A stretch of DNA of 64,000 nt from Bacteroidales bacterium (GTDB lineage Bacteria; Bacteroidota; Bacteroidia; Bacteroidales; SZUA-534). Position 1 is the first letter of the stretch; every line of letters starts with the position of its first letter. Positions 31,596 through 57,940 of this stretch are shown here, piece after piece. The position numbers and the translations under genes were made by a program. The notes beneath the pieces are model-generated. The model had not been told where the DNA came from, searched no databases, and saw only the letters and a list, made by a program, of their open reading frames with translations. Location: the NCBI GenBank assembly GCA_046704385.1, contig JBJKSB010000105.1, forward strand, positions 165 to 64,164. The letters are read 5' to 3'.

Positions 31596-31622
31596 AAAAA
31601 GGAGGCTTCGGCCTCTTTTTTT
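31594..31622. terminator. bidirectional rho-independent terminator between convergent ahcY and the lipoprotein gene
   Basis: AAAAAAAG-GAGGC-TTCG-GCCTC-TTTTTTT, with an A-run and a T-run flanking a GC stem and a UUCG tetraloop. Confidence 0.8.
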
Positions 31623-32064
31623 AATTGTATATTCTAAGATAACTTCCATCAAAAGCAGTTTTATAGGCCTTTAACGGATAACTCGCCGGGCCTTTGTTTA
31701 CTGCACCATAGTTTACCTCAAATTTTGATCCGCAACAACTGCATACAACCAGACTGATACTGTTTTCGTCTTTTGAAACAGCACAACCCTGTTTTAAATC
31801 ATATGGACAGGTAGCATCGTAGGCTACAAATTGATAGTCGCCATTTGAATCAGTACCGGTGTTAATAACAATAATGCCGTTTCCCAGGTAACCTTCATTT
31901 GGAATAGTCACCATTTCATAAGGATCAAGCAACGCAATATATTCCGGATCATAAATTAAGATGGGCTCAATATATATTGGTATATTTGGTATCGGATGTT
32001 GTGTGTCCTTGCCACAGGCAGAAAATAGTACGATTATTGCAGTAAATAAAAAAAATTTTCTCAT
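31621..32064 (-). CDS. lipoprotein with a Rieske-fold-like domain lacking both His ligands
   Basis: The ATG at 32064 gives MRKFFLFTAIIVLFSAC (lipobox). The C-terminus, ATCPYDLKQGC...VVCSCCGSKFEV.YGAVNKGPASYPLKAYK..FDGSYLRI, tracks the Rieske template CxH...CxxHGSxF...GPA..L..Y...dg.l.v. The His positions hold Tyr and Cys. Confidence 0.6.
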   Translation of the reverse strand: MRKFFLFTAIIVLFSACGKDTQHPIPNIPIYIEPILIYDPEYIALLDPYEMVTIPNEGYLGNGIIVINTGTDSNGDYQFVAYDATCPYDLKQGCAVSKDENSISLVVCSCCGSKFEVNYGAVNKGPASYPLKAYKTAFDGSYLRIYN

Positions 32065-32087: not shown

Positions 32088-32483
32088 ATGGCGCAATTTA
32101 GTCAAAATATCAGGGAGTTAAAATATTACAGGTTATTTAGGAATACTGCTTTATTATTTATACTTTTTAATGTTTTTAATATAAACAGTAGTTACGGGCA
32201 ATATCAATATTCATTCGATCTTAATAATGTAAAAGCGCGTCACGTTCCGGTAATGTTCCGGTTAAAGCAACTAAAGGGTACTGTAAAAGATGATATTGCG
32301 CATTATAAGGAGAAGCGAATTGAGAGAAAAACATCAAGAAAAACCAGAAAACACGCATACGCAATTCAAACACATGAGGTAAAAAAACGCATGCGTAAAT
32401 CAAGTAAAAATGCAGTGCATCACAATAAAGGAACAGAACCATTAATTGTTAGAATAAAAAAATATTTGAAATGGACGACATAA
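32088..32483 (+). CDS. hypothetical protein with a highly basic C-terminal half
   Basis: The ATG at 32088 gives MAQFSQ..., avoiding overlap with the divergent gene. It has a hydrophobic segment (ALLFILFNVFNINSSYG) and then a Lys/Arg-rich tail. Coding status is uncertain. Confidence 0.4.
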   Translation: MAQFSQNIRELKYYRLFRNTALLFILFNVFNINSSYGQYQYSFDLNNVKARHVPVMFRLKQLKGTVKDDIAHYKEKRIERKTSRKTRKHAYAIQTHEVKKRMRKSSKNAVHHNKGTEPLIVRIKKYLKWTT

Positions 32484-32848
32484 TTCAAGTGCTCATCTTT
32501 TTAGGTACTATAATTATTTTTATAGTTTCTGCTGTAGCCAAGCAAAAGAAAAAACCGAATCAAACCAATAAAAAATTTGATAATGTTCTTGAAGAATTAT
32601 TTGGTTTTCCGTCTGAGAATCCGGTAATGGCTCAAAATCCTTTCAGGCCGGCAGATTTTGAATCACAAACCGTTGAAAAAAGCACCATTGAAGCACCAAC
32701 CACAACTAAAGAAGGTGTTAAAGCCATACCTGATGACGATTTGGAAGAAATTGAAGAATCAGCCGATAACGAAACTGAGAATAATTCAGTATTTGATTTG
32801 CGTCAGGCTGTAATATTTTCTGAAATTCTAAACCGAAAATATCAATAA
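32471..32848 (+). CDS. hypothetical small membrane-anchored acidic protein
   Basis: 125 aa with an N-terminal TM (IIQVLIFLGTIIIFIVSAVA), an acidic linker and the tail FDLRQAVIFSEILNRKY. It overlaps the previous ORF by 13 nt. Confidence 0.5.
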   Translation: MDDIIQVLIFLGTIIIFIVSAVAKQKKKPNQTNKKFDNVLEELFGFPSENPVMAQNPFRPADFESQTVEKSTIEAPTTTKEGVKAIPDDDLEEIEESADNETENNSVFDLRQAVIFSEILNRKYQ

Positions 32849-32961: not shown

Positions 32962-35900
32962 ATGATAAGAAAGTTACCTGTTATTTTTTTCGTATTGATT
33001 GCTACCATTGGGGCAAATGCCCAAACGGGGACACTCAAGGGGAAAGTGGTTGATGCAGTATCGGGTGAGGCCATCCCTTTTGCTAATGTGGTGGTACAAC
33101 AAAATGGGAATATGGTTGGTGGCGGAGTTTCTGATTTTGATGGAAATTATACGGTAAAACCAGTTCCTGCAGGACGTTTCACAGTAAAAGCCTCGTACGT
33201 TGGATATAATTCCCTTCAGGTTAACGATGTAATTGTTTACAGCGATAAAATCCGCTTTCTGGATTTGCACATGAACAGTTCAACCCAGGAAATAAAGGAA
33301 GTTGACGTAATTGCGTATACAGTACCTTTGATTGATAAAGATAATACCTCTACCGGGGGAACGGTTACCTCGGAAGAAATTTCAAAAATGGCTGGCCGCT
33401 CGGCAGAGGCTGTTGCTTCAACGGTGGGCGGTGTTTACCAGGAGGATGGGCAGGTAAAAAGTATCAGGGGCGCACGACAGGATGCAACTGTTTATTATAT
33501 TGACGGAGTAAAAGTGCGTGGTTCAAATAATCTTCCCAAAGCATCAATTGCCGAAGTGTCGGTAGTTACCGGAGGCCAGCCCGCAAAATACGGTGATGCA
33601 ACCGGAGGGGTTATCAGCATTGTAACCAAGGGAGCTTCAAGAACTTTTTTTGGAGGTTTTGAGCTGGCAACTTCAAAATTTCTAGACCCATATAACAGTA
33701 ATATTGCAGCGGCCAATCTTTCTGGGCCGCTTATTACCCGTAAAATTGTTGATCCGAATAATCCTAAAAAAGTTACCAAAGAACCCATTTTGGGCTTTTT
33801 TGTAGCCGGTGAATACCAATATGCTAAAGACCCGAACCCTTCAGCTGTGGGTTTTTGGAAGGTTAAAGATAATATTCTTGACAGCATCAAACGGACACCT
33901 TACATACGACCGGGAGGAGGCGATGTATCGGTACCAACGGCTTCCTATTTACATGCTGATGATTTCGAAAACGTTAAGGCCAGGGAAAATGTGGCTAGGC
34001 AACAGGCAATGTTTTCAGGTAAACTTGACTTTCAACCTTTAAAGAATCTTGTTTTTACATTCGGTGGTAATTTTCAGTTTGATAATGGGAATTATCTGGG
34101 CGGCAATGGAAAAGGTTCATTAAGCGGTTCTGCACAGACAGGTATTTTTAATTATGAAAATAACGGACAGTTAAATAATACTACCTACAGGGTTTATGGC
34201 AGGATGACACATCATTTGGGATCACAAAATAACGGGGAAACCGAATCATCATTATTTAAAAATGCTTATTATACCATTCAGGCTGATTATTCCAAATATT
34301 TGTCGAAACAACAGGATGAAAATCACAAGGATAACTTTTTTGATTATGGATATGTTGGAAAATTTAAAACTTACAGCCGACCGACTTATCAATATGGTAC
34401 CGACACTTCTCTGAATTTGACAGGTTATATCATGAATAATATTCAGGATACTGTGGTAACATACCAACCGGGAACTTTAAATCCTGAACTTGCCAGAATT
34501 ACAGAAATTTGGTACGACTATTTTGGTAACCCGCTAAATAAGACCGATCTATCAGGATTAAATGGATTATTAAACGGGCAAACTCCTGGTGCAATATATA
34601 ATATGGTCCAACAACCGGGTGTCCCTTATTCAAGCTATGCAAAAACCGATGATGATCAATTCAGAATTAGTGCTACTGGTTCAACCGATATAGGCGATCA
34701 TGAGATATCAGCGGGATTTGAATTTGAAAAGCGTACAGATCGGTATTATGGATTGGCTCCCATTGGTTTATGGCAACTTGCCCGAAATTACATGAATAAT
34801 CATATTCTTGAATTAAACCTAGGTAATCCGATTCCGGGTTATATTACTGATGAAAATGGCAATCAGGTATTAGGTCCTGATGGTAACCCCATCTTTAATG
34901 ATACCATAAATTATAGCCGGCTTTATAATAAGGCTGCCCAATCGTTATTCGATATCAAATTTCGTGAAAGCCAGGGACTTTCGGTAGATGGAACTGAATT
35001 TGTTGATGTTGACAGCTATGATCCTGATCAACTAAAATTAGAATATTTCAGTGCTGACGAATTATACAACAATAGTAACTCGGCGGTTTACTATTACGGC
35101 TTTGATCCCTACGGAAACAAAACATCTGCAAAACCGGGCTTCGATGAATTTTTCAGCAATGTATATAATTATGGTGGAAAGCAATGGTACAGCCGAAATA
35201 TAGCTCCATTTGAGCCCATTTATATGGCAGGATATATTCAGGATAAATTTGCTTTTAATGATCTGGTTTTTAATGTCGGGGTTCGTGTCGATCGATACGA
35301 TGCAAACCAGAAAGTGCAAAAGGACCCGTACCTGGTTTATACAGCTTATAAAGCAGGCGACAATGACGGAACCGATTTTGGAAAAGGAATTCTGAACCAG
35401 GCTCGCAATAATGGAACCATTCCTGAAAATATAAACCCTGCTGCTACAGTGTATGTCGATAATCGTGAAGATGCCAAAACCATAGTTGGTTATCGATACG
35501 AAGACAAATGGTTTGATGCAGCAGGTAATCAAATAAACGACCCTTCACTGATTTACCAGAACGGGTCAATCCAACCCTATTTAAAAAGGCCGCAGGATCG
35601 TGTGGGTGATAAATCGTTCCTTGATGCTTTTGAAGATTACAAGCCTGATTTTTCGGTGATGCCACGTATATCATTTTCATTCCCGATTTCAGACGAGGCC
35701 TTGTTTTTTGCACATTACGACATTTTGACCAAACGTCCTGCTGCCGGCATAAGCAGGTTGAATCCTATTGATTATTTGTTTATCGAACAAAAAGGGGCAG
35801 ATTATTTCTCGAATCCAAATTTACGACCGGAAAAGACTATCGATTATGAATTTGGTTTCCAACAAAAGTTAAACAATAAATCATCGTTAAAATTATCTGC

Positions 35901-36687
35901 CTTTTACAGGGAACAGCGCGATATGGTACAGGTAATAAACCTTACAGGTGCCTACCCGATTAGCATGCGCACCTATGGCAATATCGATTTTGGTACCATC
36001 AAGGGTTTCACCTTTATGTATGATTTAAGGCGTACTGAGAATGTTTCGTTAAAAGCAAGTTATACTTTGCAATTTGCCAATGCAACCGGTTCTGATGCTA
36101 CCACCGGGGCAAGTTTAATAAATTCGGGCCAACCAAATTTAAGGGCTGCTTTACCTACCGATTTTGACCAGCGTCACGCCTTTTCGGTGTTGCTTGATTA
36201 TCGGTTCGGATCAGGCCAAAGCTATAACGGTCCCAGATGGTTTGGTACCGATATTTTTGAAAACGCAGGAGCTAATTTTACTATTAATTCAGGATCGGGC
36301 ACACCGTACACCTACAGAGACATTAACAGTGGTAAAGTACAGGGCAGTGTTAACGGATCGGTAATGCCATGGCGCACAACCATTAATATGAAGGTGGACA
36401 AAAGCTTTACTTTGCATTTTGGTGAGGGTGATGATGTTCGTTCGGCTGATCTGAATGTATACCTTGATGTTACAAATTTATTAAATACAAGAAACATACT
36501 TGGAGTTTACTCAAGCACAGGTAATGCTAACGATGATGCTTATCTGACTTCATCGAGCGGAATAGCGAAAATTAACAGTGCTTACGATATGAATGCCTTC
36601 ATCAACTATTATTTAATGATGCTTGACAACCCGGCCAATTATAATTTACCGAGGCAGATACGTTTAGGTGTAATTTTTAGCTTTTAA
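32962..36687 (+). CDS. TonB-dependent receptor-like outer-membrane protein (1241 aa) with an N-terminal carboxypeptidase-regulatory-like domain
   Basis: Signal peptide MIRKLPVIFFVLIATIGANAQ. CarboxypepD_reg-like segment: GTLKGKVVDAVSGEAIPFANVVV...GNYTVKPVPAGRFTVKASYVGYNS. Plug: SIRGARQDATVYYIDGVKVRG...VSVVTGGQPAKYGDATGGVISIVTKG. Terminal barrel strand: RQIRLGVIFSF. Confidence 0.85.
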   Translation: MIRKLPVIFFVLIATIGANAQTGTLKGKVVDAVSGEAIPFANVVVQQNGNMVGGGVSDFDGNYTVKPVPAGRFTVKASYVGYNSLQVNDVIVYSDKIRFLDLHMNSSTQEIKEVDVIAYTVPLIDKDNTSTGGTVTSEEISKMAGRSAEAVASTVGGVYQEDGQVKSIRGARQDATVYYIDGVKVRGSNNLPKASIAEVSVVTGGQPAKYGDATGGVISIVTKGASRTFFGGFELATSKFLDPYNSNIAAANLSGPLITRKIVDPNNPKKVTKEPILGFFVAGEYQYAKDPNPSAVGFWKVKDNILDSIKRTPYIRPGGGDVSVPTASYLHADDFENVKARENVARQQAMFSGKLDFQPLKNLVFTFGGNFQFDNGNYLGGNGKGSLSGSAQTGIFNYENNGQLNNTTYRVYGRMTHHLGSQNNGETESSLFKNAYYTIQADYSKYLSKQQDENHKDNFFDYGYVGKFKTYSRPTYQYGTDTSLNLTGYIMNNIQDTVVTYQPGTLNPELARITEIWYDYFGNPLNKTDLSGLNGLLNGQTPGAIYNMVQQPGVPYSSYAKTDDDQFRISATGSTDIGDHEISAGFEFEKRTDRYYGLAPIGLWQLARNYMNNHILELNLGNPIPGYITDENGNQVLGPDGNPIFNDTINYSRLYNKAAQSLFDIKFRESQGLSVDGTEFVDVDSYDPDQLKLEYFSADELYNNSNSAVYYYGFDPYGNKTSAKPGFDEFFSNVYNYGGKQWYSRNIAPFEPIYMAGYIQDKFAFNDLVFNVGVRVDRYDANQKVQKDPYLVYTAYKAGDNDGTDFGKGILNQARNNGTIPENINPAATVYVDNREDAKTIVGYRYEDKWFDAAGNQINDPSLIYQNGSIQPYLKRPQDRVGDKSFLDAFEDYKPDFSVMPRISFSFPISDEALFFAHYDILTKRPAAGISRLNPIDYLFIEQKGADYFSNPNLRPEKTIDYEFGFQQKLNNKSSLKLSAFYREQRDMVQVINLTGAYPISMRTYGNIDFGTIKGFTFMYDLRRTENVSLKASYTLQFANATGSDATTGASLINSGQPNLRAALPTDFDQRHAFSVLLDYRFGSGQSYNGPRWFGTDIFENAGANFTINSGSGTPYTYRDINSGKVQGSVNGSVMPWRTTINMKVDKSFTLHFGEGDDVRSADLNVYLDVTNLLNTRNILGVYSSTGNANDDAYLTSSSGIAKINSAYDMNAFINYYLMMLDNPANYNLPRQIRLGVIFSF

Positions 36688-36708
36688 TTAATGCGATACT
36701 AAGAAGAA

Positions 36709-39700
36709 ATGAAAAGATTAAACTATATAATAATTCTACTTGTTGGCGGGTTTGCTTCCAATTATACTTTTGCACGCGAAAACAAACTCCATAACACACT
36801 GAAGTCGGCCCAAACTATAACAGCTGGTTGTTTGCCGGCTACCTCAGAGACCAACCTGGATTTGAATAATGTTAGAGCATTAATTTTAGCCAACGGGGGT
36901 TTATGGCAGGGTGATGCTGTAGGAGAATACGAAATACCCAAAGGATCGAAAAAAACATCAATGTTTGCCGGTTCGGTTTGGGTTGGCGGAGTTGATGTTA
37001 ACGGTCAGTTGCGAACCTGTGCCCGGACATACCGGGGAAGCGGTTATGGTAATGATTTCTGGCCCGGCCCGCTGGTTTCAAGCGGTGAGCAAATTGCCAG
37101 CGTATCACCAGACGTATGTGTCATGTATGATAAGCATTTTAAGATAACTCGTGACGAAGTGGAAAAATTTATAAGTTACAATAATGCTGATTCAAAAACA
37201 AAGGCTGAGCAATTCAGTGATTATACTGTACCCAAAATTATCCAGGAATGGCCGGCAAAAGGTCCGGTAGATTATGGGGCGTACGATTATTACCTGGCCC
37301 CGTTTATGGATGTTGATGGTGATGGGGTTTATAATCCAAGTAATGGCGATTATCCTTATTATGTTTTTGATAAAAATGCTCCCTGCAATTATCAGCCGGA
37401 GCGCAGAGCTGAAAATTTGGGTAATACAAGCCAAAAATTATTTGGCGATGAAACCATCTGGTGGGTATATAACGATAAAGGAAATGTTCATACTACCTCA
37501 AAAGGTGCTGCTGCTATTGGGATGGAGTTCCGGGCTCAGGCCTTTGCCTTTTCCACCAACGATGAACTTAATAATATGACCTTTTATAATTACCAGATCA
37601 TTAATCGCTCAACCTATTCATTAACAGATGCTTATTTCGGGGTTTGGAACGATCCTGATTTGGGATATGCCTATGATGATGCGGCAGGTTGTGATGTGGT
37701 ACGCGGGTTGGGATACGTTTATAATTCGAAAGATATTGATGGTACCGGAGGCGAAGTGGAAGCCTATGGTGCGCACCCGCCTGCAATTGGTGTAGACTTT
37801 TTTGAAGGACCATATCAGGATCCGGACGGACAGGATAACCCGACATCATGGGAAGATATTGAAAGAACACGTTTAGACTGTGAAATGGGTTATACATTAA
37901 ATCCGGCCGGGACCGGCGATAACATTCCAACCGGTAAGCCGGGCGATATTTTTAACGGAAACATTAACGGCCTAAACTTTGGCGATGGCGTTGTTGATAA
38001 TGAACGTTGGGGGATGCGGCGCTTTGTTTTTTATGTAAACGGCGGGACGAATAATGGCGACCCTACAACAGCACTCCATTTTTATCAATATTTAAAAGGA
38101 TATTGGCTTGATGGTACCCGGATGACCTACGGAGGAAACGGACAGGGAGGTACGCAGCCTGCTGATTTTATGTATCCTGACGATACCGATAAATGTGGCT
38201 GGGGAACCAATGGCAATATTAAAGGGCCTGATGATCCGTGGACTAAGAATGACGACCCAACAGTACAGGACGGCCTTGATTTCAGGATTGTGCAGTCGGC
38301 CGGACCTTTTATTCTTGAACCGGGCGCAGTGAATGACATTACCGTCGGTGTGGTTTGGGCAAGGGCAAACTCAACAGCTTGGGCTTCGGTTGGTGAAGTT
38401 CGTAAAGCCGATATGAAAGCGCAGCGTTTATTCGAAAACTGTTTCCAGCTGATTGACGGACCAACCGCTCCGGATATGAGCGTTGTTGAACTTGATGGCA
38501 AATTGATTTTTCATTTATCAAATCAGCCTAATTCAAATAATTACCTGGAAAGTTATAGCGAGCGCGATCCTTTTATCGATCCCACAGTACCCGATAAAGA
38601 TAAATTTTACAAATTCCAGGGCTACCAGGTTTTCCAGTTGAAAGACAAGACGGTGACACTTGGAGAAATAACCGATGTTAATAAAGCCCGCCAGGTATTT
38701 CAATGTGATATAAAAGATAGTGTGTCACAGATAGTTAATTATGTTTGGGATAATGATTTAAATGCTTCACATCCTGAAGAACGGGTTTACGGTAAAAATG
38801 CTGGTATTACTCACACCTTTGAATTGACCGAAGATGCTTTTGGTAGTGGTGAATCAAAGAAATTATTGAATTATAAAGAATACTATTATGTAGCAGTTGC
38901 CTATGCTTTTAACGATTATAACCACTATAATCCGGTTGATGAAGGATCGCTGGGAAATCAGACTACCCCGTACCTGGCCGGACGGAAAAACATTGTGGTG
39001 CATACGGCCATTCCTCATAGCATTGATGCCATGAATAAGGGAACCAAACTAAATAGTAATTATGGCGATGTTCCGGTTATAACCATGGTTGAAGGGAAAG
39101 GGAACGGAAATAATGTGTTGGAACTTTCTAATGAAACTGTAAAAAATATACTTTCAAAAACCACTTATCCGTTTAGGGCCGATACGCTGGTTTATAAGAA
39201 AAACTTTGGTCCGGTTCAGGTTCAGGTAATCGACCCGATGAGTGTTATAGATGCTGATTTTACACTTCGATTAGTTAAAGATTCAGTTAATAAAGCTAAG
39301 AATAATAATTATACTGCGGATACCAGTTATTATCCATTAACGGGTTTAATTTATGATTCAAAGTGGGAACTTTCCTGGGAATATCAGGGTGAGGAACATA
39401 GTGTACTTTCTGACTCCTGGATACGTTATGGTGATGACAAATTAATTCCCGAACTGGGGTTGTCGATTACCTGGGAACAGGTTGATTTTCCCGGCCAGGG
39501 AGCCATGCAAAAATTCGATGATAAAGATAATGTAAACAACGGGTTTCAGCAGGCCGAAATCAAATTTAAAGATGATAATGCTTCACCCTGGTTATCGTTT
39601 GTATCCGATTTAGACGGAAAAACGCCGTTTAACTGGATCAGGGTAGGGAAGCAAACCAAAGGCGAAAATGATATAGGCGATTGGAGTGATTTTATGTTCT

Positions 39701-41007
39701 CCGATGGTACATTTGTCGATCCCGATCAGGTTTATGAGAAAATACTGGATGGAACCTGGGCACCGTATGTATTCACCTCAAAAGAGCCTTATGGGAATGC
39801 TGATGTCCGATCATTACCAACATCTATCCGGTTTGATAAGTACAGATTACCCAGTGTAGATGTGGTAATTACCAAAAACAAAGACTTATGGACCCGTTGC
39901 CCGGTTATTGAAATGGCTGAAAATGACGATGGCGATGCCACAAATAGTTTGTCAGTGGGTGGTGCGCTGCGTTTCAGAATGCGTGAATCGCCTTCAAAAA
40001 ATAAAGAGGGAAAAAGCGCCGATGTATCCCTTGGAGATAACCCGACGGATGTTAATTCACCAAATTATGTCGGGGCAACCGGGATGAGCTGGTTTCCGGG
40101 TTATGCCATTGATGTGGAAACAGGCGAACGTTTAAACATTATGTTTGGTGAAGATAGCTGGCTGGTTGGAGAAAATGGGAACGACATGCTCTGGAATCCA
40201 ACTTCTAAATTTGGTGATGATATATTTTCTGCCACGGGCGGAAGCGACGGAACACCCTATTTTGGGGGTAAGCACTATATTTACATCGTAGGTCATAACG
40301 AAACCAGTGATGTAATTAACCTGGCCACGAAACAATACAGTGAAAAAATGCCCGGTTATGACGAAGGTCGTACTTTGTACTCTTTATTTAAACAGATTCG
40401 ACCGAATTCATCGACACCGACCAATGTAAAACGAATAATTGAGGAATTAATATGGAAGCATTGTGCATGGACAGCCATACCTATGACGAATGATGGGTTT
40501 GAATTCTGGGATTATAATTCAATGCCGGATAATGATGTCACCATTAAGCTGAGGATTGCTAATCCTTATTGTGTCAGTATTGGTTCAGATGCTAAGAAAA
40601 ACCCTGAAAATGATAATTTTCCGATGTTTCGTTTTTCAACTTCAGGTTTGAGAGCTGAAAAAGGGAATGAGAATGGATACGGAACAAAAGCTCTCGAAAG
40701 GATAAATGTGGTGCCAAACCCTTATTACGGTTCATCTGAGTATGAACAAAACCAGCTTGATAATATTGTTAAAATTATAAACCTGCCTGAGCGTTGTGTG
40801 GTATCAATTTATAATGCTAACGGAGGATTAATACGCCGGTTTGATAAAGATAACTCTGATTCATTTATTACCTGGGATTTAAAAAACAGCTATGGAATAG
40901 CTATTGCCAGCGGGATGTATATTATCCATATTAAATCGCCTGAATTGGGCGAAAAAGTAATTAAGTGGTTTGGTTCGTTACGGCCGGTAGACTTGAATGC
41001 ATTTTAG
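36709..41007 (+). CDS. 1432-aa secreted protein of unknown function with a FlgD-Ig/T9SS-CTD-like C-terminal domain
   Basis: Signal peptide MKRLNYIIILLVGGFASNYTFA. DxDGDG-type acidic loop (FMDVDGDGVYNPSNGDYP). I recognise no catalytic motif. C-terminus: INVVPNPYYGSS...CVVSIYNANGGLIRRF...ITWDLKNSYGIAIASGMYIIHIKSPELGEKVIKWFGSLRPVDLNAF. Confidence 0.8.
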   Translation: MKRLNYIIILLVGGFASNYTFARENKLHNTLKSAQTITAGCLPATSETNLDLNNVRALILANGGLWQGDAVGEYEIPKGSKKTSMFAGSVWVGGVDVNGQLRTCARTYRGSGYGNDFWPGPLVSSGEQIASVSPDVCVMYDKHFKITRDEVEKFISYNNADSKTKAEQFSDYTVPKIIQEWPAKGPVDYGAYDYYLAPFMDVDGDGVYNPSNGDYPYYVFDKNAPCNYQPERRAENLGNTSQKLFGDETIWWVYNDKGNVHTTSKGAAAIGMEFRAQAFAFSTNDELNNMTFYNYQIINRSTYSLTDAYFGVWNDPDLGYAYDDAAGCDVVRGLGYVYNSKDIDGTGGEVEAYGAHPPAIGVDFFEGPYQDPDGQDNPTSWEDIERTRLDCEMGYTLNPAGTGDNIPTGKPGDIFNGNINGLNFGDGVVDNERWGMRRFVFYVNGGTNNGDPTTALHFYQYLKGYWLDGTRMTYGGNGQGGTQPADFMYPDDTDKCGWGTNGNIKGPDDPWTKNDDPTVQDGLDFRIVQSAGPFILEPGAVNDITVGVVWARANSTAWASVGEVRKADMKAQRLFENCFQLIDGPTAPDMSVVELDGKLIFHLSNQPNSNNYLESYSERDPFIDPTVPDKDKFYKFQGYQVFQLKDKTVTLGEITDVNKARQVFQCDIKDSVSQIVNYVWDNDLNASHPEERVYGKNAGITHTFELTEDAFGSGESKKLLNYKEYYYVAVAYAFNDYNHYNPVDEGSLGNQTTPYLAGRKNIVVHTAIPHSIDAMNKGTKLNSNYGDVPVITMVEGKGNGNNVLELSNETVKNILSKTTYPFRADTLVYKKNFGPVQVQVIDPMSVIDADFTLRLVKDSVNKAKNNNYTADTSYYPLTGLIYDSKWELSWEYQGEEHSVLSDSWIRYGDDKLIPELGLSITWEQVDFPGQGAMQKFDDKDNVNNGFQQAEIKFKDDNASPWLSFVSDLDGKTPFNWIRVGKQTKGENDIGDWSDFMFSDGTFVDPDQVYEKILDGTWAPYVFTSKEPYGNADVRSLPTSIRFDKYRLPSVDVVITKNKDLWTRCPVIEMAENDDGDATNSLSVGGALRFRMRESPSKNKEGKSADVSLGDNPTDVNSPNYVGATGMSWFPGYAIDVETGERLNIMFGEDSWLVGENGNDMLWNPTSKFGDDIFSATGGSDGTPYFGGKHYIYIVGHNETSDVINLATKQYSEKMPGYDEGRTLYSLFKQIRPNSSTPTNVKRIIEELIWKHCAWTAIPMTNDGFEFWDYNSMPDNDVTIKLRIANPYCVSIGSDAKKNPENDNFPMFRFSTSGLRAEKGNENGYGTKALERINVVPNPYYGSSEYEQNQLDNIVKIINLPERCVVSIYNANGGLIRRFDKDNSDSFITWDLKNSYGIAIASGMYIIHIKSPELGEKVIKWFGSLRPVDLNAF

Positions 41008-41019
41008 TTTTATATAATT

Positions 41020-42078
41020 ATGACAGATATGGGAAAAAATATAAAACGATTAGCAGGTTTATTAGTTATTACATTTGTTTGTATTTCAGTAATATATGCG
41101 GGCAACGAACAAAGGATTGGTCAGGCCGGAGCCAGCGAGCTTTTAATAAATCCGTGGGCTCGTTCAAGTGCGTTGGGTGATGCCAATATTGCCAATATTG
41201 AAGGACTTGAAGGAGTATTTATAAATATTGCCGGTACGGCGCATCTGAATAAAACACAACTTGTTTTTACCAATACCAATTGGCTGAGTGGTGCCGGAAT
41301 TAAGGTAAATGCATTCGGATTATCGCAAAAAATGGGTGATGTGGGCGTTTTATCATTATCTGTAATGTCAATGGATTGGGGAGAAATTATAAAAACCACG
41401 ACCTACCAGCCTGATGGTGATGGTTCAAAGTTTCATCCAAATTATACCAATATCGGAGTTTCATATGCCAAAGAATTTTCGAACAGTATTTTTGGCGGGG
41501 CTACTGTTAAAATAATTAACGAAAGTATTGATAACTTAAGAGCTACAGGTGTTGCTTTTGATGCCGGTTTGCAATATATAACCGGAAGTCGCGAGCAGAT
41601 TAAATTTGGGGTTACCATGAAAAATGTCGGGCCAACCATGCATATGAATGGCGATGGAATGGCAGTTAGGGCAAGTGTTGACGGTGGACCGATCAATACC
41701 ATGCAAAACAGGCCCGATGATTTTGAATTACCTTCGTTAATTAAGTTAGGCATGTCGTACGACTGGGATTTTGGTGAGATGCACAAGTTAACCGTAATGG
41801 GAGCCTTTACCGAAAATTCATTTTCAAAAGACCAGTTTCATGCTGGTATGCAGTATAGTTTCCGCAAAATGTTTAGTATAAGGGGCGGATATGTTTACGA
41901 AAACGGTATTACCAGCGTCGAAAACAGGACAACCGCATTGACAGGGATTACGGCAGGTTTTACATTCGAGGTTCCTTTTAAAAAGGGTGGAGATCAGACA
42001 TTTGGAGTTGATTATTCGTTCCGTGATACTGATCCGTTTAATGGAATTCATACCATAGGAGTTAGAATTAATCTATAA
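41020..42078 (+). CDS. PorV/PorQ-family outer-membrane beta-barrel protein (T9SS shuttle-like paralogue)
   Basis: 352 aa with a signal peptide. The N-terminal motif GQAGASELLINPWARSSALGDANIANIEGLEGVFINIAG fits the PorV pattern (a.fL.i.pdARs.gMGdagvA....a.f.NPAg). It shows the alternating barrel pattern and ends IGVRINL. Confidence 0.65.
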   Translation: MTDMGKNIKRLAGLLVITFVCISVIYAGNEQRIGQAGASELLINPWARSSALGDANIANIEGLEGVFINIAGTAHLNKTQLVFTNTNWLSGAGIKVNAFGLSQKMGDVGVLSLSVMSMDWGEIIKTTTYQPDGDGSKFHPNYTNIGVSYAKEFSNSIFGGATVKIINESIDNLRATGVAFDAGLQYITGSREQIKFGVTMKNVGPTMHMNGDGMAVRASVDGGPINTMQNRPDDFELPSLIKLGMSYDWDFGEMHKLTVMGAFTENSFSKDQFHAGMQYSFRKMFSIRGGYVYENGITSVENRTTALTGITAGFTFEVPFKKGGDQTFGVDYSFRDTDPFNGIHTIGVRINL

Positions 42079-42104
42079 ATTTATTATATTTGTTCCGGTT
42101 TAAA

Positions 42105-42139
42105 GAGTCCCGTGATCTCGCGGGATTCTTTTTCTTTTA
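42105..42139 (+). terminator. rho-independent terminator closing the TBDR / 1432-aa / PorV-like operon
   Basis: GAGTCCCG (42105..42112) pairs with CGGGATTC (42121..42128), 8-nt loop, then TTTTTCTTTT. Confidence 0.7.
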
Positions 42140-42167
42140 ATAACTGATTTATAACAGGAGGTGAATC

Positions 42168-43068: not shown

Positions 43069-45096
43069 CTAATCTGACTTTTTAATAAACCGAATAGCCT
43101 GACCGCCTCCTTTTGCGAGTTTCAGGCTTATTTTACTGTTGGAAGTAACCGTTTTTTCTAAATAGTCAACACTATAGGGATTGGTCTTCCAATCGGCATC
43201 TTCGCCATCTTTATAAATCTGGGCAGTGTAAGTAGCATCGTTATCAAGAAAGCTTAAATCAATTTTAAGCACACGACTGTTTTCATCGGTAATTGCACCA
43301 AGGAACCAATCATCTGAATTCCTGTCTTTGCGCGCTGTAACAATGTAATCGCCAATTTTTGAATCGAGTACTTTCGTTTCGGTCCAATCTACAGGAACAT
43401 CCTTAATAAACTGGAAAGCTTTTTTGCCTTCATAATTTTCGGGCAGGTCCGATGCCATTTGTAAAGGACTGTAAATTACTACATATAAAGCAAGTTGTTT
43501 GGCTATGGTTGTTTGCACCCTTGTTCCGGGGTTCATCTTATTTTCAAAATTGAAAGTGCCAAAGGTTAAATCCATTGGACCAGCCAGTCCACGTGTAAAG
43601 GGTAGAACTGTAGTATGTTCAGGAGGATTTCCTCCATCTTTCGACCATGCGTCATATTCCTGTCCCCGAACAGCCTCCTGGGTCATCAGGTTGGGATAGG
43701 TGCGCTGAATGCCTGTAGGCATTACTGATTCATGATTATCAATTACAATTTGATACTTGGCGGCAGTTTCCACCACCTTCCTGAAATGGCGAACACCATA
43801 CTGGCTACTATGATATTCCTTGCCATCGAGTTTTGGATTTACATACCCGGTTTTTACGATGTGCACACCCACTTTCTGATACTGTTTAAAAGCGTCGTCC
43901 ATCTGTTTTTCATAGTTTTTTGTTGCCCCGCCGGTTTCGTTATGGCCTATTAGTTTAACATTTTTTGAGGCCCCGTATTTGCATATTTCCTCAAGGTTAA
44001 AATCGGGATAAGCTTCAGTAAAACTAATTTGATCGCCATGCTTAACCCAGTCGAAATCCCAACCATTATTCCAGCCTTCGACCAGAACACCACTAAAGCC
44101 ATTTTTTGCGGCAAAGTCCATATAATATTCTGTGTTTTCCGTTGTGGCTCCATGTTTAGGACCTTGTGCCCAGGTATATTTACCCATATGAATGGCCCAC
44201 CAGATACCAATATATTTACCAGGTTTAATCCACGAAACGTCTTTAATTTTGTTGGGTTCATTTAAATTCAACGCGATGTACGATGTTATTAAATCACCGG
44301 GTTTATTGCCGATGGTAATAGTCCGCCAGGGCGTATGCATTCCGGCTTTTGTAAAAACTTTCTCGCCGGTTGACCATGGGGTAAGATCAACCTGTAAGGC
44401 ATTATCTTTTGTATAAAATAAATTCATAGCCGCATAATCCGTAAGATTTGCCTCATGAATGGCAACATATTTACCATTTTCCATTTCAATGGTTAATGGA
44501 GTACAAACCGTATCCATTTCTGAAAATTTGGTATGACGGAACAGGCTTTCGTAATAAGTTTCTTTATAAGCAGGAATCCACCAGGCTTGTTTTTCCTGCG
44601 CCAACTTAAATTGGGTAAGTTCATCCATTATAATGATGGAATCAATTTTGGGTTGTTTGGGTATCTGGTACCGGAATCCTACGCCCTCATTAAAAACCCT
44701 GAACGTAATATTAAGTTGTCGGCGCGGAGGTTGCGTTTCCTCCAGGTTGACGGTTAGCTCCTCGTATCGGTTCTCAATAAGTCGGCGCTCGCCCCAAACC
44801 TGTTCCCAGGTTTCATTTACTGAATTTCGTGCAGTATTTTTAATGGTCATTGCATTCCCCAGGTCAGGCATATTTTTAAACCTAAAACCTAATTTTGAAT
44901 TCTGAACAATAACCTGATTGTCAGAAACTACTGAATATAATGCCTCCCCGTCAATTATTTCAAAGCGCAGGCTTGTTTTTCCGTCGGGTGATGTTACAAT
45001 CTCGTTTTCAGGGTAGGGAAAGCACCCAGAAATTAACGCTGTCAGTATAACTAACGAAAGTTTAATTTTATGTTTTGTAAAGATCATATTATTCAA
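43069..45096 (-). CDS. glycoside hydrolase family 97 (SusB-like alpha-glucosidase type), lipoprotein
   Basis: 675 aa with lipobox LISGC. GH97-typical N-terminal segment (SPDGK..L.F...DG...Y.V....ETWEQVWGERR) and catalytic barrel motifs (FSGVLVEGWN.GW, GHNETGG, QEAVRGQEY). It is a paralogue of 59427..61541. Confidence 0.8.
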   Translation of the reverse strand: MNNMIFTKHKIKLSLVILTALISGCFPYPENEIVTSPDGKTSLRFEIIDGEALYSVVSDNQVIVQNSKLGFRFKNMPDLGNAMTIKNTARNSVNETWEQVWGERRLIENRYEELTVNLEETQPPRRQLNITFRVFNEGVGFRYQIPKQPKIDSIIIMDELTQFKLAQEKQAWWIPAYKETYYESLFRHTKFSEMDTVCTPLTIEMENGKYVAIHEANLTDYAAMNLFYTKDNALQVDLTPWSTGEKVFTKAGMHTPWRTITIGNKPGDLITSYIALNLNEPNKIKDVSWIKPGKYIGIWWAIHMGKYTWAQGPKHGATTENTEYYMDFAAKNGFSGVLVEGWNNGWDFDWVKHGDQISFTEAYPDFNLEEICKYGASKNVKLIGHNETGGATKNYEKQMDDAFKQYQKVGVHIVKTGYVNPKLDGKEYHSSQYGVRHFRKVVETAAKYQIVIDNHESVMPTGIQRTYPNLMTQEAVRGQEYDAWSKDGGNPPEHTTVLPFTRGLAGPMDLTFGTFNFENKMNPGTRVQTTIAKQLALYVVIYSPLQMASDLPENYEGKKAFQFIKDVPVDWTETKVLDSKIGDYIVTARKDRNSDDWFLGAITDENSRVLKIDLSFLDNDATYTAQIYKDGEDADWKTNPYSVDYLEKTVTSNSKISLKLAKGGGQAIRFIKKSD

Positions 45097-45111
45097 TTAT
45101 GCTGTTTGAAG

Positions 45112-46728
45112 CTATTTTTTCATATTATATTCGGTTGAATACAAAGGCGGTTTATTTCCAAAAATAGCCTTATGAAATTCATTAAATTCACTTGAAAATG
45201 TGTAAATAAGCCTGTCGGTTCTGTAAGGTTTATCAGTTATCCATTCCGGTGTTTCAAAACTTACAGTCTTTGTACCATTTCGTTCAACCGATACATCTAC
45301 CGGGCCTGGATGGTAATCAAATTTGGTTGAAACCAGCCCAGCCTGAACATTTTTCTTTTGACCATTAACCGTTACATCAGCAGGATTCGAGAGAATTGTC
45401 ACTACCTCAATGGAATCTTCGTAAGATTCAGGTACTGCCTGCGATAAATAAACAATGGGAATATTATATGGGGCCGGTTTAATATCGTGACGGTATTTCT
45501 TAAAGAATGCTATAGCCACATCTTTATTTTGATAGGGTGATGGTTCGTGTTTCCAAACGCTTTTATAATAATTCAGCAAAACCGAAAATCCGAAGTTATG
45601 ATTTACTTCCGGGGCAAGGTGGTGTCCTTCGGGATAATCATTCCAGGTAATAATATTTACAATAGGAACATCTTTTTCAATGGCAAATTCAAACAGCTTT
45701 CTGAAGTTGTATGAAAGGCCTGTTATAATACCCCTGCGTTCCACTTTATCCATTCCGGCACGGGCAGCATCAATGGCAAAATTATACATATCCCATGTAC
45801 CAGGAGGCAGTAATTTAGATGTATAAAACGAAGGAAATACCGAGCCGGTAAAGGTTCTGTGCCGTTCTTTGCAGGTTTCAGCAACCATTTCGCCCACATA
45901 GTTTTTTGTATAAGGAAGTGTCCAAAGCCAGACAGCCGGTATGTAATCGAGCCAGGTGTTGAGTTCATCTTTGGTAATATTAAAATTAATTCCTAATACA
46001 AATGCTGGATTTTCGTGTATGGCATTTGCCAATTTTTTCAAAGCCCGGGCCACATAAAACTGTCGTGGCAAACCTTGTAAATCGGATGGTATATCAGCAA
46101 TTTGTTCGCCATACCATAAATACATAACTAAACGGCCATCGGGGGTTCTTAACCAATGCGGGTTGTCATGGCCAACTGCATCAAAAATGGAATTCATACG
46201 TTTGGCATATTCCTGAATTTTAACTTTTTCAGTTAATCCACCAGGGTGCGAGGGACAAAGTGTAAATTTAAAAGGGATGTGTTTTTCTTCAGCTACTTTA
46301 AAATAGGCTTTAATTATTTCATCATCAGGACCTCTTTTCCTAAGCGGATAATAAAACTGGAAACCGTCAATCCCACACTTCATGGCAGCCCTCATTTCAA
46401 ATTCAACAGCTTGTTCCAGCGATGAGTCTTTTAAGTACCTTTCTGACATTACATTTACCTGTACCATTCCACCCAGGCTTTCTGTAATATTTCCCTCACG
46501 GGGATAGTATTCCGGATCGGCACTGTCTTCCAGGTCATGATGTTTAAACCTGATTATATCAGTCATATTATGGGCTATAACCAATTTTTGGTTTGTTAAA
46601 GGCAAGCTAAATTCAGGTAAGTTTTTAAGGGTGTCTTTGATTTCAGCCGATTTTGCAGGTATAACAAAGCCTGTTAAAGTAAAAAGCAAAATAAAAATTG
46701 TTTTTATGTTACATGGGTTTGTTTTCAT
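45112..46728 (-). CDS. secreted GH71/GH99-clan TIM-barrel glycosidase-like protein (538 aa)
   Basis: Signal peptide. VIAHNMTD...AVEFEMRAAMKCGIDGFQFYY resembles the GH71 pattern (vfaHfmvgn...D...A...GIDgFaLN). IITWNDYPEGHHLAP resembles the WNDyxE motif. The family assignment is tentative. Confidence 0.55.
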   Translation of the reverse strand: MKTNPCNIKTIFILLFTLTGFVIPAKSAEIKDTLKNLPEFSLPLTNQKLVIAHNMTDIIRFKHHDLEDSADPEYYPREGNITESLGGMVQVNVMSERYLKDSSLEQAVEFEMRAAMKCGIDGFQFYYPLRKRGPDDEIIKAYFKVAEEKHIPFKFTLCPSHPGGLTEKVKIQEYAKRMNSIFDAVGHDNPHWLRTPDGRLVMYLWYGEQIADIPSDLQGLPRQFYVARALKKLANAIHENPAFVLGINFNITKDELNTWLDYIPAVWLWTLPYTKNYVGEMVAETCKERHRTFTGSVFPSFYTSKLLPPGTWDMYNFAIDAARAGMDKVERRGIITGLSYNFRKLFEFAIEKDVPIVNIITWNDYPEGHHLAPEVNHNFGFSVLLNYYKSVWKHEPSPYQNKDVAIAFFKKYRHDIKPAPYNIPIVYLSQAVPESYEDSIEVVTILSNPADVTVNGQKKNVQAGLVSTKFDYHPGPVDVSVERNGTKTVSFETPEWITDKPYRTDRLIYTFSSEFNEFHKAIFGNKPPLYSTEYNMKK

Positions 46729-46747
46729 AGGATTAACTTGACTATAA

Positions 46748-49036
46748 TTAATAGTTTATTTCAATTTTTTGACCCGGGGTACAAGTATTCTTCTTCCCGG
46801 TGATCTCGAAAATGTGAGATGATTTATTTTCTTTCAAAGCATCAATAACTACCTGGTTTTTGGTAATTTTTACATGGAATTGATCCAGTTTATAATTTAA
46901 GTTAAAACTAATGGCATCCCATTTTCGATATAGTTTCGGGTCAATAATAACCTTATCAGTATCGGTCCGGAGACCGGCAAAACCAAAAATGGCAGTCATC
47001 CATGCACCGCCATTGGCTGCCGGATGTGAGCCTCCCATGAAAATAGTACCTACAAACACTTTGTATTTTGCTTCAAGGTCAATTTTTGCAGTTTTTAAGA
47101 AGTAATTATAGGCATGATCCAGATCACCGTTTTCAGCGGCAACCATGGCGTAAGTACAGGCGCTCAGGCTCGATCCGTGTTCGGTTTTAGGCTCATAATA
47201 CTTCCAGTTGGCAAGTTTTATTTCTTTTGAAAACCGGTCGCTAAAAAAGCTTAACATGTAAACCACATCAGCCTGTTTAATTACTTTGGTAGGTACCGCC
47301 AATCCCTGGCCTGCACCCATGTATTCATCAGGATGCATTTTTTGGGAAACCAGGTCATCAATTTTTACATCCTTAAGTTTAAAGTAGGCATCAAATTGTT
47401 CAATTATACCGTCCTTGTTGGGTTGAGGCACATATAACAATTTTTCAGTTTCGGCAAAAAGCGGGAGTTCATTTTCAATATCAATCTTTTTAATTAATTC
47501 CTTTAGTTTTTCCGGATAATTGGTTTTAAGATATTCAACGGTTTTGTTGGCAACCTCAAAGGTAACTTTGGCCACCATATTGGTAAAGGCATTATTATTC
47601 ACCCTCTCGTGAAATTCATCAGGGCCAATCACATCAAGTATTTCATATCTGTTTTTGTCTTTCTTAAAGTAGGCGTAGGAATAATAAAACCGGGCACATT
47701 CCAGTATAACTTCAGCGCCGCCATTAAGAAGCAGCGAGTCATCGCTGGTAATTTTAAAATATTCCCACATGGCAATGGCCACATCTCCGCTTATGTGAAC
47801 CTGTTTATCCCTGAAATGGGTGCGGAGTAACCGTCCCGTATGTGGGTCACCAATATTAAAGTAAGTACAGGCATCATCACCGGTTTCCTGGCTTTCCCAG
47901 GCATAAAAAGCACCTCTGAATCCAATGCTTTCGGTTTGTGCTTTTCTGCGGGCACCATCAAGTGTATTTATTCTGTATTGTAATAATTCAACCGCTTTTT
48001 CGGGATAAGTACGAACAAAGAATGGAAACATAAACATTTCGGTATCCCAAAAAATCGCCCCTTTATAAACCTGGCCGGAAAGAGCCCGGGCAGGGATTGA
48101 GCTGGCACTTCCTTTTACGGGAGCCACCATTAAAAGCTGGAAAATACTATATCGTAAGGCATGTTGGGCTTCGTTGTCGCCTTCAATCAGCACATCGCAT
48201 TTTTGCCATTTTTGTTCCCATTCTGCATTGTGTTCCGCCAGGCATTGCGCAAAACCTTTATGGGCAGCCTTGTTAACCAGCTGGTGTGCTACTGTTTTTA
48301 CATCGTCATTAAAAGGATCGCCCTCTTTAACCACAGCGATGTATTTATTATAAGTGTACTTTTTATCTGCTAAGGCCTGTATATTTATGGTCCTGAGATT
48401 ATAATTATTTTTCACCTTGTGCTGTTCAGTGCCATCGGAACAAACTATTAACTCCACTACGGCCAGCTTTTTACCTAATTCGTTGGTTTGGGCAGTTACC
48501 GACAAAATATTATCATTTTTTTCAGCTTTAATTTCCCTGAGGTGTGGTCCGTTTAAATCCCAGATGTTATAATCGATACCCGTATTTAATGTAACCAGAG
48601 AATCCTTGTCGATATTAAAACTGTACTCAACAACCATCAAATTAGGTGTTAAAGCGCTTAAAAACCTTTTTGAATTCAGGGTTAGTATTTTATTATTAAC
48701 CTTGAAAACAGTAGTTCTTTCAAAAGATGCATTCTTTAGGTCGAGAACCTGGTGATGAGATATTATTTCCGTATCAAGGGCGGAGATTTCCATCCCGTCA
48801 ACAGTTATTTTTGAATAGGCACCATTGGGAGCATTTACGGGTTCCCGCCAGGCATCGCCAACCTGGTCAAACATTCCTGCCAGGGTGATCCCAACCAGTT
48901 GTTCGGGGCCAAATTCATCCAGGGTTCCCCGATAACCCATGTAGCCGTTCGATATCTGGAAAACATTGCCATTACGCATAATGTTTTCGGTGTCGTTAGT
49001 AAATTTATCAGATGTTACTTTCCACAAATCCATCAT
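46748..49036 (-). CDS. glycoside hydrolase family 65 enzyme (disaccharide phosphorylase-like; kojibiose, nigerose, maltose or trehalose type), cytoplasmic
   Basis: 762 aa with no signal peptide. Catalytic-acid region VIGPDEFHERVNNNAFTN (GH65 GPDEY..NNaYTN). HGSSLS segment resembling the phosphate-site SSLS of GH65 phosphorylases. Confidence 0.85.
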   Translation of the reverse strand: MMDLWKVTSDKFTNDTENIMRNGNVFQISNGYMGYRGTLDEFGPEQLVGITLAGMFDQVGDAWREPVNAPNGAYSKITVDGMEISALDTEIISHHQVLDLKNASFERTTVFKVNNKILTLNSKRFLSALTPNLMVVEYSFNIDKDSLVTLNTGIDYNIWDLNGPHLREIKAEKNDNILSVTAQTNELGKKLAVVELIVCSDGTEQHKVKNNYNLRTINIQALADKKYTYNKYIAVVKEGDPFNDDVKTVAHQLVNKAAHKGFAQCLAEHNAEWEQKWQKCDVLIEGDNEAQHALRYSIFQLLMVAPVKGSASSIPARALSGQVYKGAIFWDTEMFMFPFFVRTYPEKAVELLQYRINTLDGARRKAQTESIGFRGAFYAWESQETGDDACTYFNIGDPHTGRLLRTHFRDKQVHISGDVAIAMWEYFKITSDDSLLLNGGAEVILECARFYYSYAYFKKDKNRYEILDVIGPDEFHERVNNNAFTNMVAKVTFEVANKTVEYLKTNYPEKLKELIKKIDIENELPLFAETEKLLYVPQPNKDGIIEQFDAYFKLKDVKIDDLVSQKMHPDEYMGAGQGLAVPTKVIKQADVVYMLSFFSDRFSKEIKLANWKYYEPKTEHGSSLSACTYAMVAAENGDLDHAYNYFLKTAKIDLEAKYKVFVGTIFMGGSHPAANGGAWMTAIFGFAGLRTDTDKVIIDPKLYRKWDAISFNLNYKLDQFHVKITKNQVVIDALKENKSSHIFEITGKKNTCTPGQKIEINY

Positions 49037-49042
49037 AAAAAG

Positions 49043-50545: not shown

Positions 50546-50670
50546 TCTGATTTAATTAAAATTGTATTTAAAAAGTACCGTATTGTTTAGTTCAGTTATA
50601 TAATAATTCGGGTTTGGGTACTTTCCGACACCCAATTTTTAATGTTTTCACTTATAAAAAAGCAAGGTAA

Positions 50671-50706: not shown

Positions 50707-50723
50707 TTTTGCACCAACAACTA

Positions 50724-52229: not shown

Positions 52230-52279
52230 GTTTTTATATTTATTTGTTGATAAATATTATTGTTTAGTATACACAACCT

Positions 52280-57907: not shown

Positions 57908-57940
57908 TAAATATAACCTTATGAACGCACTACTGGTGGT

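Follow-up and report, generated by a model that had tools for sequence, protein, structure and literature searches.

In a 64-kb window of genomic DNA from a Bacteroidales bacterium (assembly GCA_046704385.1, contig JBJKSB010000105.1, positions 165 to 64,164 of the forward strand; all positions given below are window coordinates), we analyzed three consecutive genes encoding a TonB-dependent receptor, a very large type IX secretion system (T9SS) cargo-type protein, referred to here as the giant, and an outer-membrane barrel of the PorV/PorQ family (Table 1). An earlier sequence-only reading of the same DNA had reported three same-strand genes with gaps of 21 and 12 nt, and the list of open reading frames (ORFs) bears this out for the first and second gap, respectively. 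The public call for gene 3 is 349 aa long, which suggests a start at M4 and then a gap of 21 nt. The terminator proposed at 42105..42139 is real, with its stem slightly displaced to 42102..42131; among the terminator-like sites in the region it is the strongest, and it lies between gene 3 and greA (42168). The flanks consist of housekeeping genes, namely an S41 protease and S-adenosylhomocysteine (AdoHcy) hydrolase upstream and GreA and HIT downstream. The trio is a self-contained three-gene outer-membrane module, accompanied in some lineages by a small membrane ORF upstream. A search for riboswitches or leaders 5' of the receptor returned nothing credible, and a promoter scan with the sigma-70 consensus, which is unsuited to Bacteroidota, performed no better than the shuffled expectation.

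Table 1. Features of the three-gene locus in window coordinates (aa, residue numbers of the respective protein).
Feature	Position	Strand	Details or basis
Small ORF, candidate accessory member	32471..32848	+	125 aa; N-terminal transmembrane helix, Lys-rich stretch, acidic linker
Gene 1, TonB-dependent receptor	32962..36687	+	ORF of 1241 aa
TonB-box-like segment EVDVIAY (receptor aa 113-119), then conserved VPLIDKDNT	33298..33318	+	Alignment
Gene 2, giant T9SS-type cargo	36709..41007	+	ORF of 1432 aa
Acidic loop DVDGDGVYNPSNGDYPYY (giant aa 201-218, DVDGDG...GDYPYY)	37309..37362	+	DxDxDG pattern
Predicted T9SS C-terminal domain, beta-sandwich (giant ~aa 1331-1422)	40699..40974	+	TIGR04183, Foldseek
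Tail SLRPVDLNAF after the last strand of that domain (...GEKVIKWFG)	40975..41004	+	Conserved, 10 aa
Gene 3, PorV/PorQ-family barrel	41020..42078	+	ORF of 352 aa, probably 349 aa from M4
Intrinsic terminator	42102..42141	+	13-bp stem (42102..42131) with 6 G-C pairs, 4-nt loop, T-run

The product of gene 1 consists of a signal peptide, a CarboxypepD_reg N-terminal extension (PF13715 and PF13620, aa 24-115; CarbopepD_reg_2 at aa 25-115 with 54.9 bits in Pfam), a Plug domain (PF07715, aa 133-217, 33.7 bits, cut-off 23.9), a divergent barrel and a terminal Phe that is invariant in a seven-sequence alignment. Pfam thereby agrees with the earlier assignment as a plug-containing receptor with a CarboxypepD_reg N-domain. 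A receptor-family profile searched against the PDB matched the plugs of Cir, PirA and Fiu with E values down to 4e-12. The barrel gave partial matches alone (aa 931-1049, NCBIfam) and PF00593 was not returned at E <= 0.1 in Pfam; this domain is present in the receptor orthologues of three other loci (L002, L003 and L084). Between the N-terminal extension and the plug, the seven-sequence alignment keeps the pattern E-V-x-V-x-x-Y-x-V-P-L-I-D-K-D, and in 75 sequences this segment ranks among the best-conserved 12-mers of the receptor. Its first part, EVDVIAY, resembles the TonB boxes of Bacteroidota and may act as one. The receptor had also been called oversized, which is correct relative to the SusC protein encoded in the same window (991 aa), but among its orthologues (1210-1311 aa) a length of 1241 aa is normal.

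Membership in the SusC/RagA family was defined by at least 368 bits on TIGR04056 together with the SusC signature TIGR04057. Neither model matched the receptor at E <= 0.1 in the NCBIfam search, which returned partial matches to TonB-dependent transporters (TBDTs) only, whereas the true SusC of the window scored 755.3 and 61.7 bits, respectively, as a positive control. We therefore rejected a SusC/RagA assignment, all the more so because the gene following the receptor is the giant, and not SusD, in all of the 67 loci described below. According to Pfam, a SusD_RagB domain is absent from all three trio proteins, as had been noted before, and a genuine SusC/SusD pair is found elsewhere in the window. 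Since the receptor lies outside SusC/RagA, a missing SusD is to be expected, and the former proposal that the giant replaces SusD started from a wrong premise. The receptor is a non-SusC TBDT with an Oar-like architecture of N-terminal extension, plug and barrel; this denotes an architectural class and is no proof of orthology, and the Oar-specific barrel family was not detected in it by Pfam.

Gene 3 scored 144.1 bits on the PorV/PorQ family model NF033709 (cut-off 90, E 7.5e-42), with aa 37-352 aligned to positions 3-326 of the 326-position profile, in line with the PorV/PorQ signature recognized previously. It stayed below the cut-offs of four more specific models: 77.7 of 220 bits on the PorQ equivalog NF033711 with a full-length alignment, 56.8 of 250 bits on the PorV equivalog NF033710 with the N-terminal half alone, 17 of 90.55 bits on the PorP/SprF model TIGR03519 and 26.7 of 250 bits on the BamG model. 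Its 4238 homologues are named 'PorV/PorQ family protein', many of them carrying PF19572/PF11751, and a single-sequence search of the PDB gave chance matches only. A generic porin of the FadL/OmpP1 type, which the sequence-only reading had held out as an alternative, was rejected because gene 3 clears the PorV/PorQ model and matches no FadL-type family at E <= 0.1. Judged by these profile scores, gene 3 encodes a PorV/PorQ-family barrel that is PorQ-like in length and neither a canonical PorV nor a canonical PorQ.

The giant, described earlier as an orphan, turned out to belong to a large family. A word-indexed search yielded more than 4600 homologues, nearly all of them full-length (~1350-1490 aa), and an exhaustive search of representatives at 50% identity gave 7077 clusters with E <= 1e-3, 1824 of them with E <= 1e-30. 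Scanning GTDB with a single genome for each species showed relatives in at least 572 species. Carriers comprise Bacteroidales metagenome-assembled genomes (MAGs), Salinivirgaceae and Flavobacteriales (Crocinitomicaceae, Parvicellaceae, Vicingaceae, Cryomorphaceae and Weeksellaceae), and the cultured ones include Salinivirga cyanobacteriivorans and Putridiphycobacter roseus. Source annotations read 'hypothetical' or 'T9SS type A sorting domain-containing protein' and nothing else.

An alignment of 28 giants, 48-76% identical to the query, contains about 190 invariant columns. Behind the signal peptide (aa 1-22), the layout consists of a beta-rich N-terminal module with acidic loops (~aa 40-590), two Ig/FN3-like sandwiches (~aa 590-770), a novel module (~aa 800-1310), a flexible linker, the C-terminal domain (CTD) and the tail. 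The signal peptide and the acidic DVDGDG loop at aa 201-218 confirm what had been read from the sequence, i.e. a secreted protein with such a loop. Within the loop, D201, Y208, G213, D214 and P216 are invariant in the same alignment, and its DxDxDG pattern indicates that it probably binds Ca2+; several invariant loops of this kind in the giant suggest further candidate calcium sites.

In order to obtain structural models, AlphaFold2 (AF2) was run on two overlapping parts with alignments of 44 sequences each, covering aa 23-842 (pLDDT 80, pTM 0.78) and aa 813-1432 (pLDDT 87, pTM 0.79). Foldseek comparison of the N-terminal model with the PDB returned weak partial matches only (TM <= 0.22), corresponding to beta-supersandwich parts of GH15/GH94/GH116 hydrolases/phosphorylases and to FN3 domains, and the C-terminal model matched nothing beyond its last ~90 residues, the CTD. 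As a single sequence, the giant had no match in the PDB; the family profile found a weak match to the PorZ CTD only, and no Pfam family scored above threshold. Since only the CTD matches in the Foldseek, PDB sequence and profile searches, the body of the giant is, as modelled, a beta-rich fold family without a known relative. An identity as glycoside hydrolase was rejected, as the model lacks an (alpha/alpha)6 catalytic domain, and Pfam, the PDB searches and Foldseek place the giant in no characterized enzyme family, a possibility that the sequence-only reading had raised against its own proposal. Among divergent and longer giants, Pfam detected no domain save one insertion in a single member, the 1687-aa relative P0371 (BNR/Sortilin-Vps10-type, aa 996-1104, PF14870, E 2e-13).

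A FlgD-Ig/T9SS-CTD-like domain had been suspected near the C-terminus of the giant, and the AF2 model supports it: Foldseek matched this part to PorZ (5m11, E 3e-6, 25% identity), PorU (6za2), the RemZ CTD in the SprA translocon (8gl8_D, TMt 0.65) and the mirolase CTD (8qb1, TMt 0.67). In profile searches, it scored 24.3 bits on TIGR04183 (cut-off 23) and 16.4 bits on PF18962 (cut-off 27), so that the curated TIGR04183 cut-off is cleared only marginally and that of Pfam is missed. According to the model, the giant has a C-terminus with a T9SS-type CTD fold that is closest to the CTD of PorZ. An orthologous relationship with PorZ or PorU was rejected, because the CTD alone matches and there is neither a double propeller nor a Peptidase_C25 match.

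The 'extra 14 aa' reported behind this domain are real and conserved, although KWFG belongs to the last CTD strand, which leaves an add-on of about 10 aa. Across 75 trio-linked giants, the consensus including the last strand is K-W-F-G-x-[LM]-R-P-x-D-L-[ND]-x-F-COOH, with R-8, D-5 and F-1 present in every sequence (75/75). By comparison, the three canonical CTDs encoded in the window end at the last strand without a tail. AF2 assigns the tail low confidence (pLDDT < 50), as expected for a peptide that would fold on a partner. Few stretches of the giant are as well conserved as its CTD and tail, and a secretion tag destined for removal would hardly be kept so constant. Because the tail is invariant, the CTD conserved and a barrel encoded next door, we infer that the CTD is retained in the mature protein and bound to that barrel. 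Covariation of tail residues with barrel or receptor did not exceed that with the controls GreA and HIT (normalized mutual information), the tail being nearly invariant and thus uninformative in this respect.

Next, we asked how consistently the three genes occur together. Taking the giant as query, the order receptor-giant-barrel is kept in 57 of 83 loci from Bacteroidales and Flavobacteriales; these loci usually run on into GreA and HIT, and a small divergent lipoprotein gene and AdoHcy hydrolase are often located upstream. When metagenome contigs were searched with the receptor, a giant came directly after it in 67/67 loci with room for one; at least 45 of 48 then continue with the barrel and 37 of 38 with GreA. 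The trio order also persists around giants that are only 38% identical and 1309-1760 aa long. Pairwise divergences of receptor, giant and barrel over 70 non-redundant loci correlate with r 0.83-0.91, compared to 0.49-0.61 against GreA or HIT, and the partial r controlling for GreA and HIT is 0.70-0.82; GreA and HIT are short and noisy controls for such a mirror-tree comparison, so the contrast is overstated and the correlated divergence is supportive only. Overall, there is very strong evidence that receptor, giant and barrel are genetically wired as one unit across two orders. The dedicated unit postulated by the sequence-only reading, and its expectation of synteny elsewhere, are thus well founded.

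In these 67 loci, the receptor is never found without a giant. A giant also occurs as a solitary gene (L036, L040, L044, L051-L057, L060, L075, L078, L082 and others). The solitary giant of Putridiphycobacter roseus (L060) has unrelated neighbours and an altered tail, ...SRKPDFDNL. Two MAGs, UBA852 and CRAIB_MAG76, contain both a trio and a solitary giant. In about ten loci, a second, full-length giant (40% identical) is inserted between barrel and greA (L011 (11512-15624), L020, L024, L025, L027, L029, L032, L035, L045 and L049); the tail is missing in the second paralogues of L011 and L029 and kept in that of L045.

In guts, sediments, digesters and waters, the turnover of polymers is dominated by Bacteroidota, which owe much of this ability to TonB-dependent transporters with surface proteins and to the T9SS. 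To our knowledge, TBDT-partner systems and the T9SS have so far been treated separately, with lipoproteins as the partners and with enzymes, adhesins or T9SS parts as the cargos. Two principles that are already known come together in the trio, namely the pairing of a TBDT with a surface partner and that of a T9SS cargo with a cognate anchor of the PorV family. Our literature search found nothing on the trio, on PorV-like barrels together with TBDTs or on the Salinivirga locus; we found no published description of the combination anywhere, which matches the initial impression that the system is not a characterized one.

Regarding the first principle, the trio resembles SusC/SusD (SusCD, RagAB) and BtuB-BtuG in that a TonB-dependent barrel is co-encoded with a large surface partner, which in those systems captures the ligand, and SusC shares the CarboxypepD_reg-type extension with the trio receptor. 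It differs from SusC/SusD in several respects: the receptor fails the SusC/RagA model entirely; the giant is no lipoprotein, having no lipobox Cys, and has about three times the size of SusD; it carries a T9SS CTD and would be anchored via a separate barrel instead of a lipid; and the locus lies outside any regulated polysaccharide-utilization locus (PUL). The resemblance to Oar of Myxococcus xanthus, which is needed for secretion of the PopC protease and has a CarboxypepD_reg extension, a plug with a TonB box and a barrel, concerns the receptor architecture and the functional tie between a TBDT and a specific secreted protein (PMC6434023). PopC, in contrast to the giant, has no T9SS CTD, no PorV-like barrel is involved and transport is directed outward.

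Regarding the second principle, the sequence-only reading had regarded PorV as normally a single shuttle, which is incomplete, since dedicated barrels for CTD-retaining proteins are established (PMC10202324, PMC12365241, PMC12618676). PorU-PorV and PorZ-PorQ are pairs in which a retained CTD sits on a barrel (PMC10202324, PMC12365241), and the trio would share with them a CTD-keeping T9SS cargo held by a PorV/PorQ-family barrel, provided that the giant is retained as proposed. The likeness is greatest to PorZ-PorQ, as the modelled giant CTD is structurally nearest to that of PorZ and the barrel aligns over its full length to PorQ. In contrast to both pairs, the trio has a barrel that reaches neither equivalog cut-off (PorQ or PorV), a giant whose body is unrelated to PorZ or PorU and which bears the additional invariant tail, and a coupled TonB-dependent receptor, which is missing from the attachment complex. 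Type-B CTD cargos, for example SprB with SprF, use adjacent cognate PorP/SprF barrels and likewise have the cargo gene beside a gene for their own shuttle or anchor of the PorV superfamily (PMC12618676); Fjoh_1677 is another example, with three type-B CTD substrates whose genes lack a shuttle gene beside them. Here, however, the CTD is type-A-like (TIGR04183), the barrel belongs to PorV/PorQ and not to PorP/SprF, and a receptor is part of the unit. Compared with type-A cargos, the CTD of the giant is not its extreme C-terminus, as the 10-aa tail extends beyond the last strand. A structural precedent for a unit of barrel and giant beside the receptor is provided by BamA-BamG-BamH, where BamG, a FadL/PorV-like 14-strand barrel, abuts BamA and serves as platform for a large extracellular dome (PMC12578637). 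The partners there are surface lipoproteins, no T9SS cargo is involved and the large barrel is an Omp85 protein, not a TBDT.

In the explanation that we favour, tentatively and with slightly less than even confidence, the T9SS exports the giant, the uncleaved CTD and the tail hold it on a PorQ-like barrel of its own, and giant and receptor cooperate in uptake. In this model, Sec would take the giant across the inner membrane and the T9SS would then export it via its CTD. The giant would stay uncleaved and held at the surface, with the CTD and the RPxDLxxF tail docking non-covalently on the dedicated PorQ-like barrel of 14 strands, by analogy to PorZ-PorQ and PorU-PorV. The unit of barrel and giant could be positioned beside or over the receptor, which would act as the energized TonB-dependent transporter (Oar-like, non-SusC, with N-terminal extension, plug and barrel). 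The giant would capture, and perhaps process, a ligand outside the cell for import by the transporter. As the genes sit in a constitutive, housekeeping-type context and the sequences are very strongly conserved, the substrate is more likely to be ubiquitous than a niche glycan.

Several observations weigh against this model. Pfam, Foldseek and PDB profile searches detected no recognizable binding or catalytic domain in the giant, and its CTD, as described, passes one profile by a narrow margin and fails the other. The operon contains no regulator, glycoside hydrolase, peptidase, riboswitch or known leader that would offer a clue to the substrate, and its placement among housekeeping genes fits envelope biogenesis as well as uptake. 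One locus (L164, 9735-14614) encodes receptor and giant followed directly by greA, with no barrel. In 26 of the 83 loci, mostly from Crocinitomicaceae and their relatives, a giant paralogue stands alone without adjacent receptor or barrel; as these solitary giants reside in unrelated contexts, the giant can function, or at least persist, without the two. The statistical contrast with GreA and HIT is weakened by the quality of these controls, and all protein-protein contacts in the model are ones that we infer.

The solitary giants and the tail-less second paralogues within operons also show that the giant body is workable without a dedicated anchor, and this speaks for a looser arrangement, in which no stable tripartite complex is formed: the giant would be a T9SS-secreted enzyme or binding protein that is released or attached by PorU, the receptor would import the products and the barrel would be a private shuttle. 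We consider this unlikely, although the synteny evidence serves it just as well as the favoured model and the weak supersandwich likeness to N-terminal domains of glycoside hydrolases/phosphorylases would fit the binding of carbohydrates. With its invariant tail and highly conserved CTD, the C-terminus looks instead like one with a lasting structural role, no catalytic domain was detected in the giant, and the divergences of barrel and giant are tightly correlated.

The gene neighbourhood raises a second alternative, to which we assign a low probability, namely an envelope- or T9SS-associated housekeeping machine in which a TonB-energized barrel does mechanical work, either as a complex for surface assembly or attachment, such as an alternative to PorZ-PorQ/PorU-PorV, or in outer-membrane biogenesis or maintenance. 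AdoHcy hydrolase upstream and GreA and HIT downstream recur across orders, and regulators or catabolic genes are lacking. Identities to the Salinivirga proteins (giant 46%, receptor 50%, barrel 52%) compare with 55% for the S41 protease and 58% for HIT. The nearest relatives of CTD and barrel, PorZ and PorQ, would also suit such a role, and BamG is an example of a PorV-like barrel as a structural part of a biogenesis machine. On the other hand, the body of the giant is unlike PorZ, PorU or any BAM or T9SS component, and the lack of a Pfam family for it argues against a universal core function. Paralogue expansion is, moreover, commoner in ligand-binding proteins. The standard model genera of the phylum (Bacteroides, Flavobacterium and Porphyromonas) do not appear among the best 80 of at least 572 genome matches, which is a weak point against a housekeeping role.

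It is very improbable that the receptor exports the giant or assists in its export, as Oar does for PopC, with the CTD-like domain used for surface docking only. The receptor shares with Oar the sequence of CarboxypepD_reg extension, plug and barrel (PMC6434023) and strictly adjoins the giant; yet the CTD of the giant is, judged by its modelled structure, a bona fide T9SS one, the organism has further T9SS cargos, and solitary paralogues with the same CTD and tail have no adjacent receptor. The folded, beta-rich giant of 155 kDa is also far larger than the 74 kDa, in threaded form, for which passage through a TBDT lumen has been demonstrated (PMC6434023). A chance adjacency of three unrelated outer-membrane genes is effectively refuted by the synteny (67/67 and at least 45/48 from the receptor side, 57/83 from the giant side), by an order that survives at 38% identity and by the correlated divergences.

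Returning to the favoured uptake model, a more far-reaching form of it would make the trio an unrecognized class of outer-membrane machine with a wide distribution in Bacteroidia and Flavobacteriia, in which the T9SS installs a permanent 155-kDa subunit of novel fold on a TonB-dependent transporter via a PorQ-like barrel and an RPxDLxxF-COOH docking peptide; this is conceivable, but we regard it as rather doubtful. Such a machine would add to lipoprotein lids and soluble hemophore/siderophore systems a third means of giving a TBDT something to capture its ligand with, and it would be without precedent as an import machine that is built in part by the T9SS. If the uptake model is true, the trio joins TonB-dependent uptake and the T9SS. 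The system offers a 1400-residue family of no known fold, a testable docking motif and a cultured host, Salinivirga cyanobacteriivorans, whose giant is L21SP5_02438. Should the uptake model be wrong, the giant family would still rank among the larger conserved uncharacterized families of surface proteins in the phylum.

Upstream of the receptor, the small ORF listed in Table 1, of which four copies were aligned, ends in the conserved motif F-D-L-x-x-A-V-I-F-S-E-I-L-N-R-K-Y. With a strict pattern, a motif-bearing ORF was found 5' of the receptor in 31 of 122 loci (L001, L002, L006, L020, L024, L110, L132, L145 and others), and tblastn detected more; 28 of the 31 end ~100-140 nt before the receptor start. 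The protein has no Pfam or NCBIfam match, and by the positive-inside rule most of it should lie in the cytoplasm. It may be a fourth member of the module. Further upstream, a gene on the minus strand (31621-32064) encodes a lipoprotein with the lipobox LFSAC and a Cys-rich, weakly Rieske-like C-terminal part, which matches the NCBIfam model PetC with E about 6e-4, far under the cut-off. Homologues in the same position and orientation 5' of the receptor are present in 36 of 83 loci.

Elsewhere in the window, three other proteins carry canonical Por_Secre_tail domains, and these CTD cargos indicate that the host uses the T9SS. A T9SS cargo encoded at 2404-8955 on the minus strand is a 2183-aa protein with beta-helix, several Ig-like (HYDIN/CFAP65-type), MAM and Kelch/NanM propeller domains. 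A classical PUL at 43069-61541 (minus strand) comprises the SusC (52280-55255, 991 aa) and SusD (50724-52229) genes mentioned above, together with two GH97 enzymes, GH65, a GH71-like protein, a transporter of the major facilitator superfamily and a DUF6377/TPR regulator. A GH99/GH71-like enzyme of this PUL (57941-59413) bears a T9SS CTD, so that this genome already combines a SusCD locus with the T9SS. Finally, an S-adenosylmethionine (SAM) riboswitch (9542-9658, plus strand; RF00162, 72 bits) is located 5' of a methionine cluster consisting of an alpha/beta hydrolase (9987), homoserine dehydrogenase (11139), B12-dependent methionine synthase (12394) and MTHFR (16207); the minus-strand ORF at 9243-9764 that overlaps the riboswitch is probably spurious.

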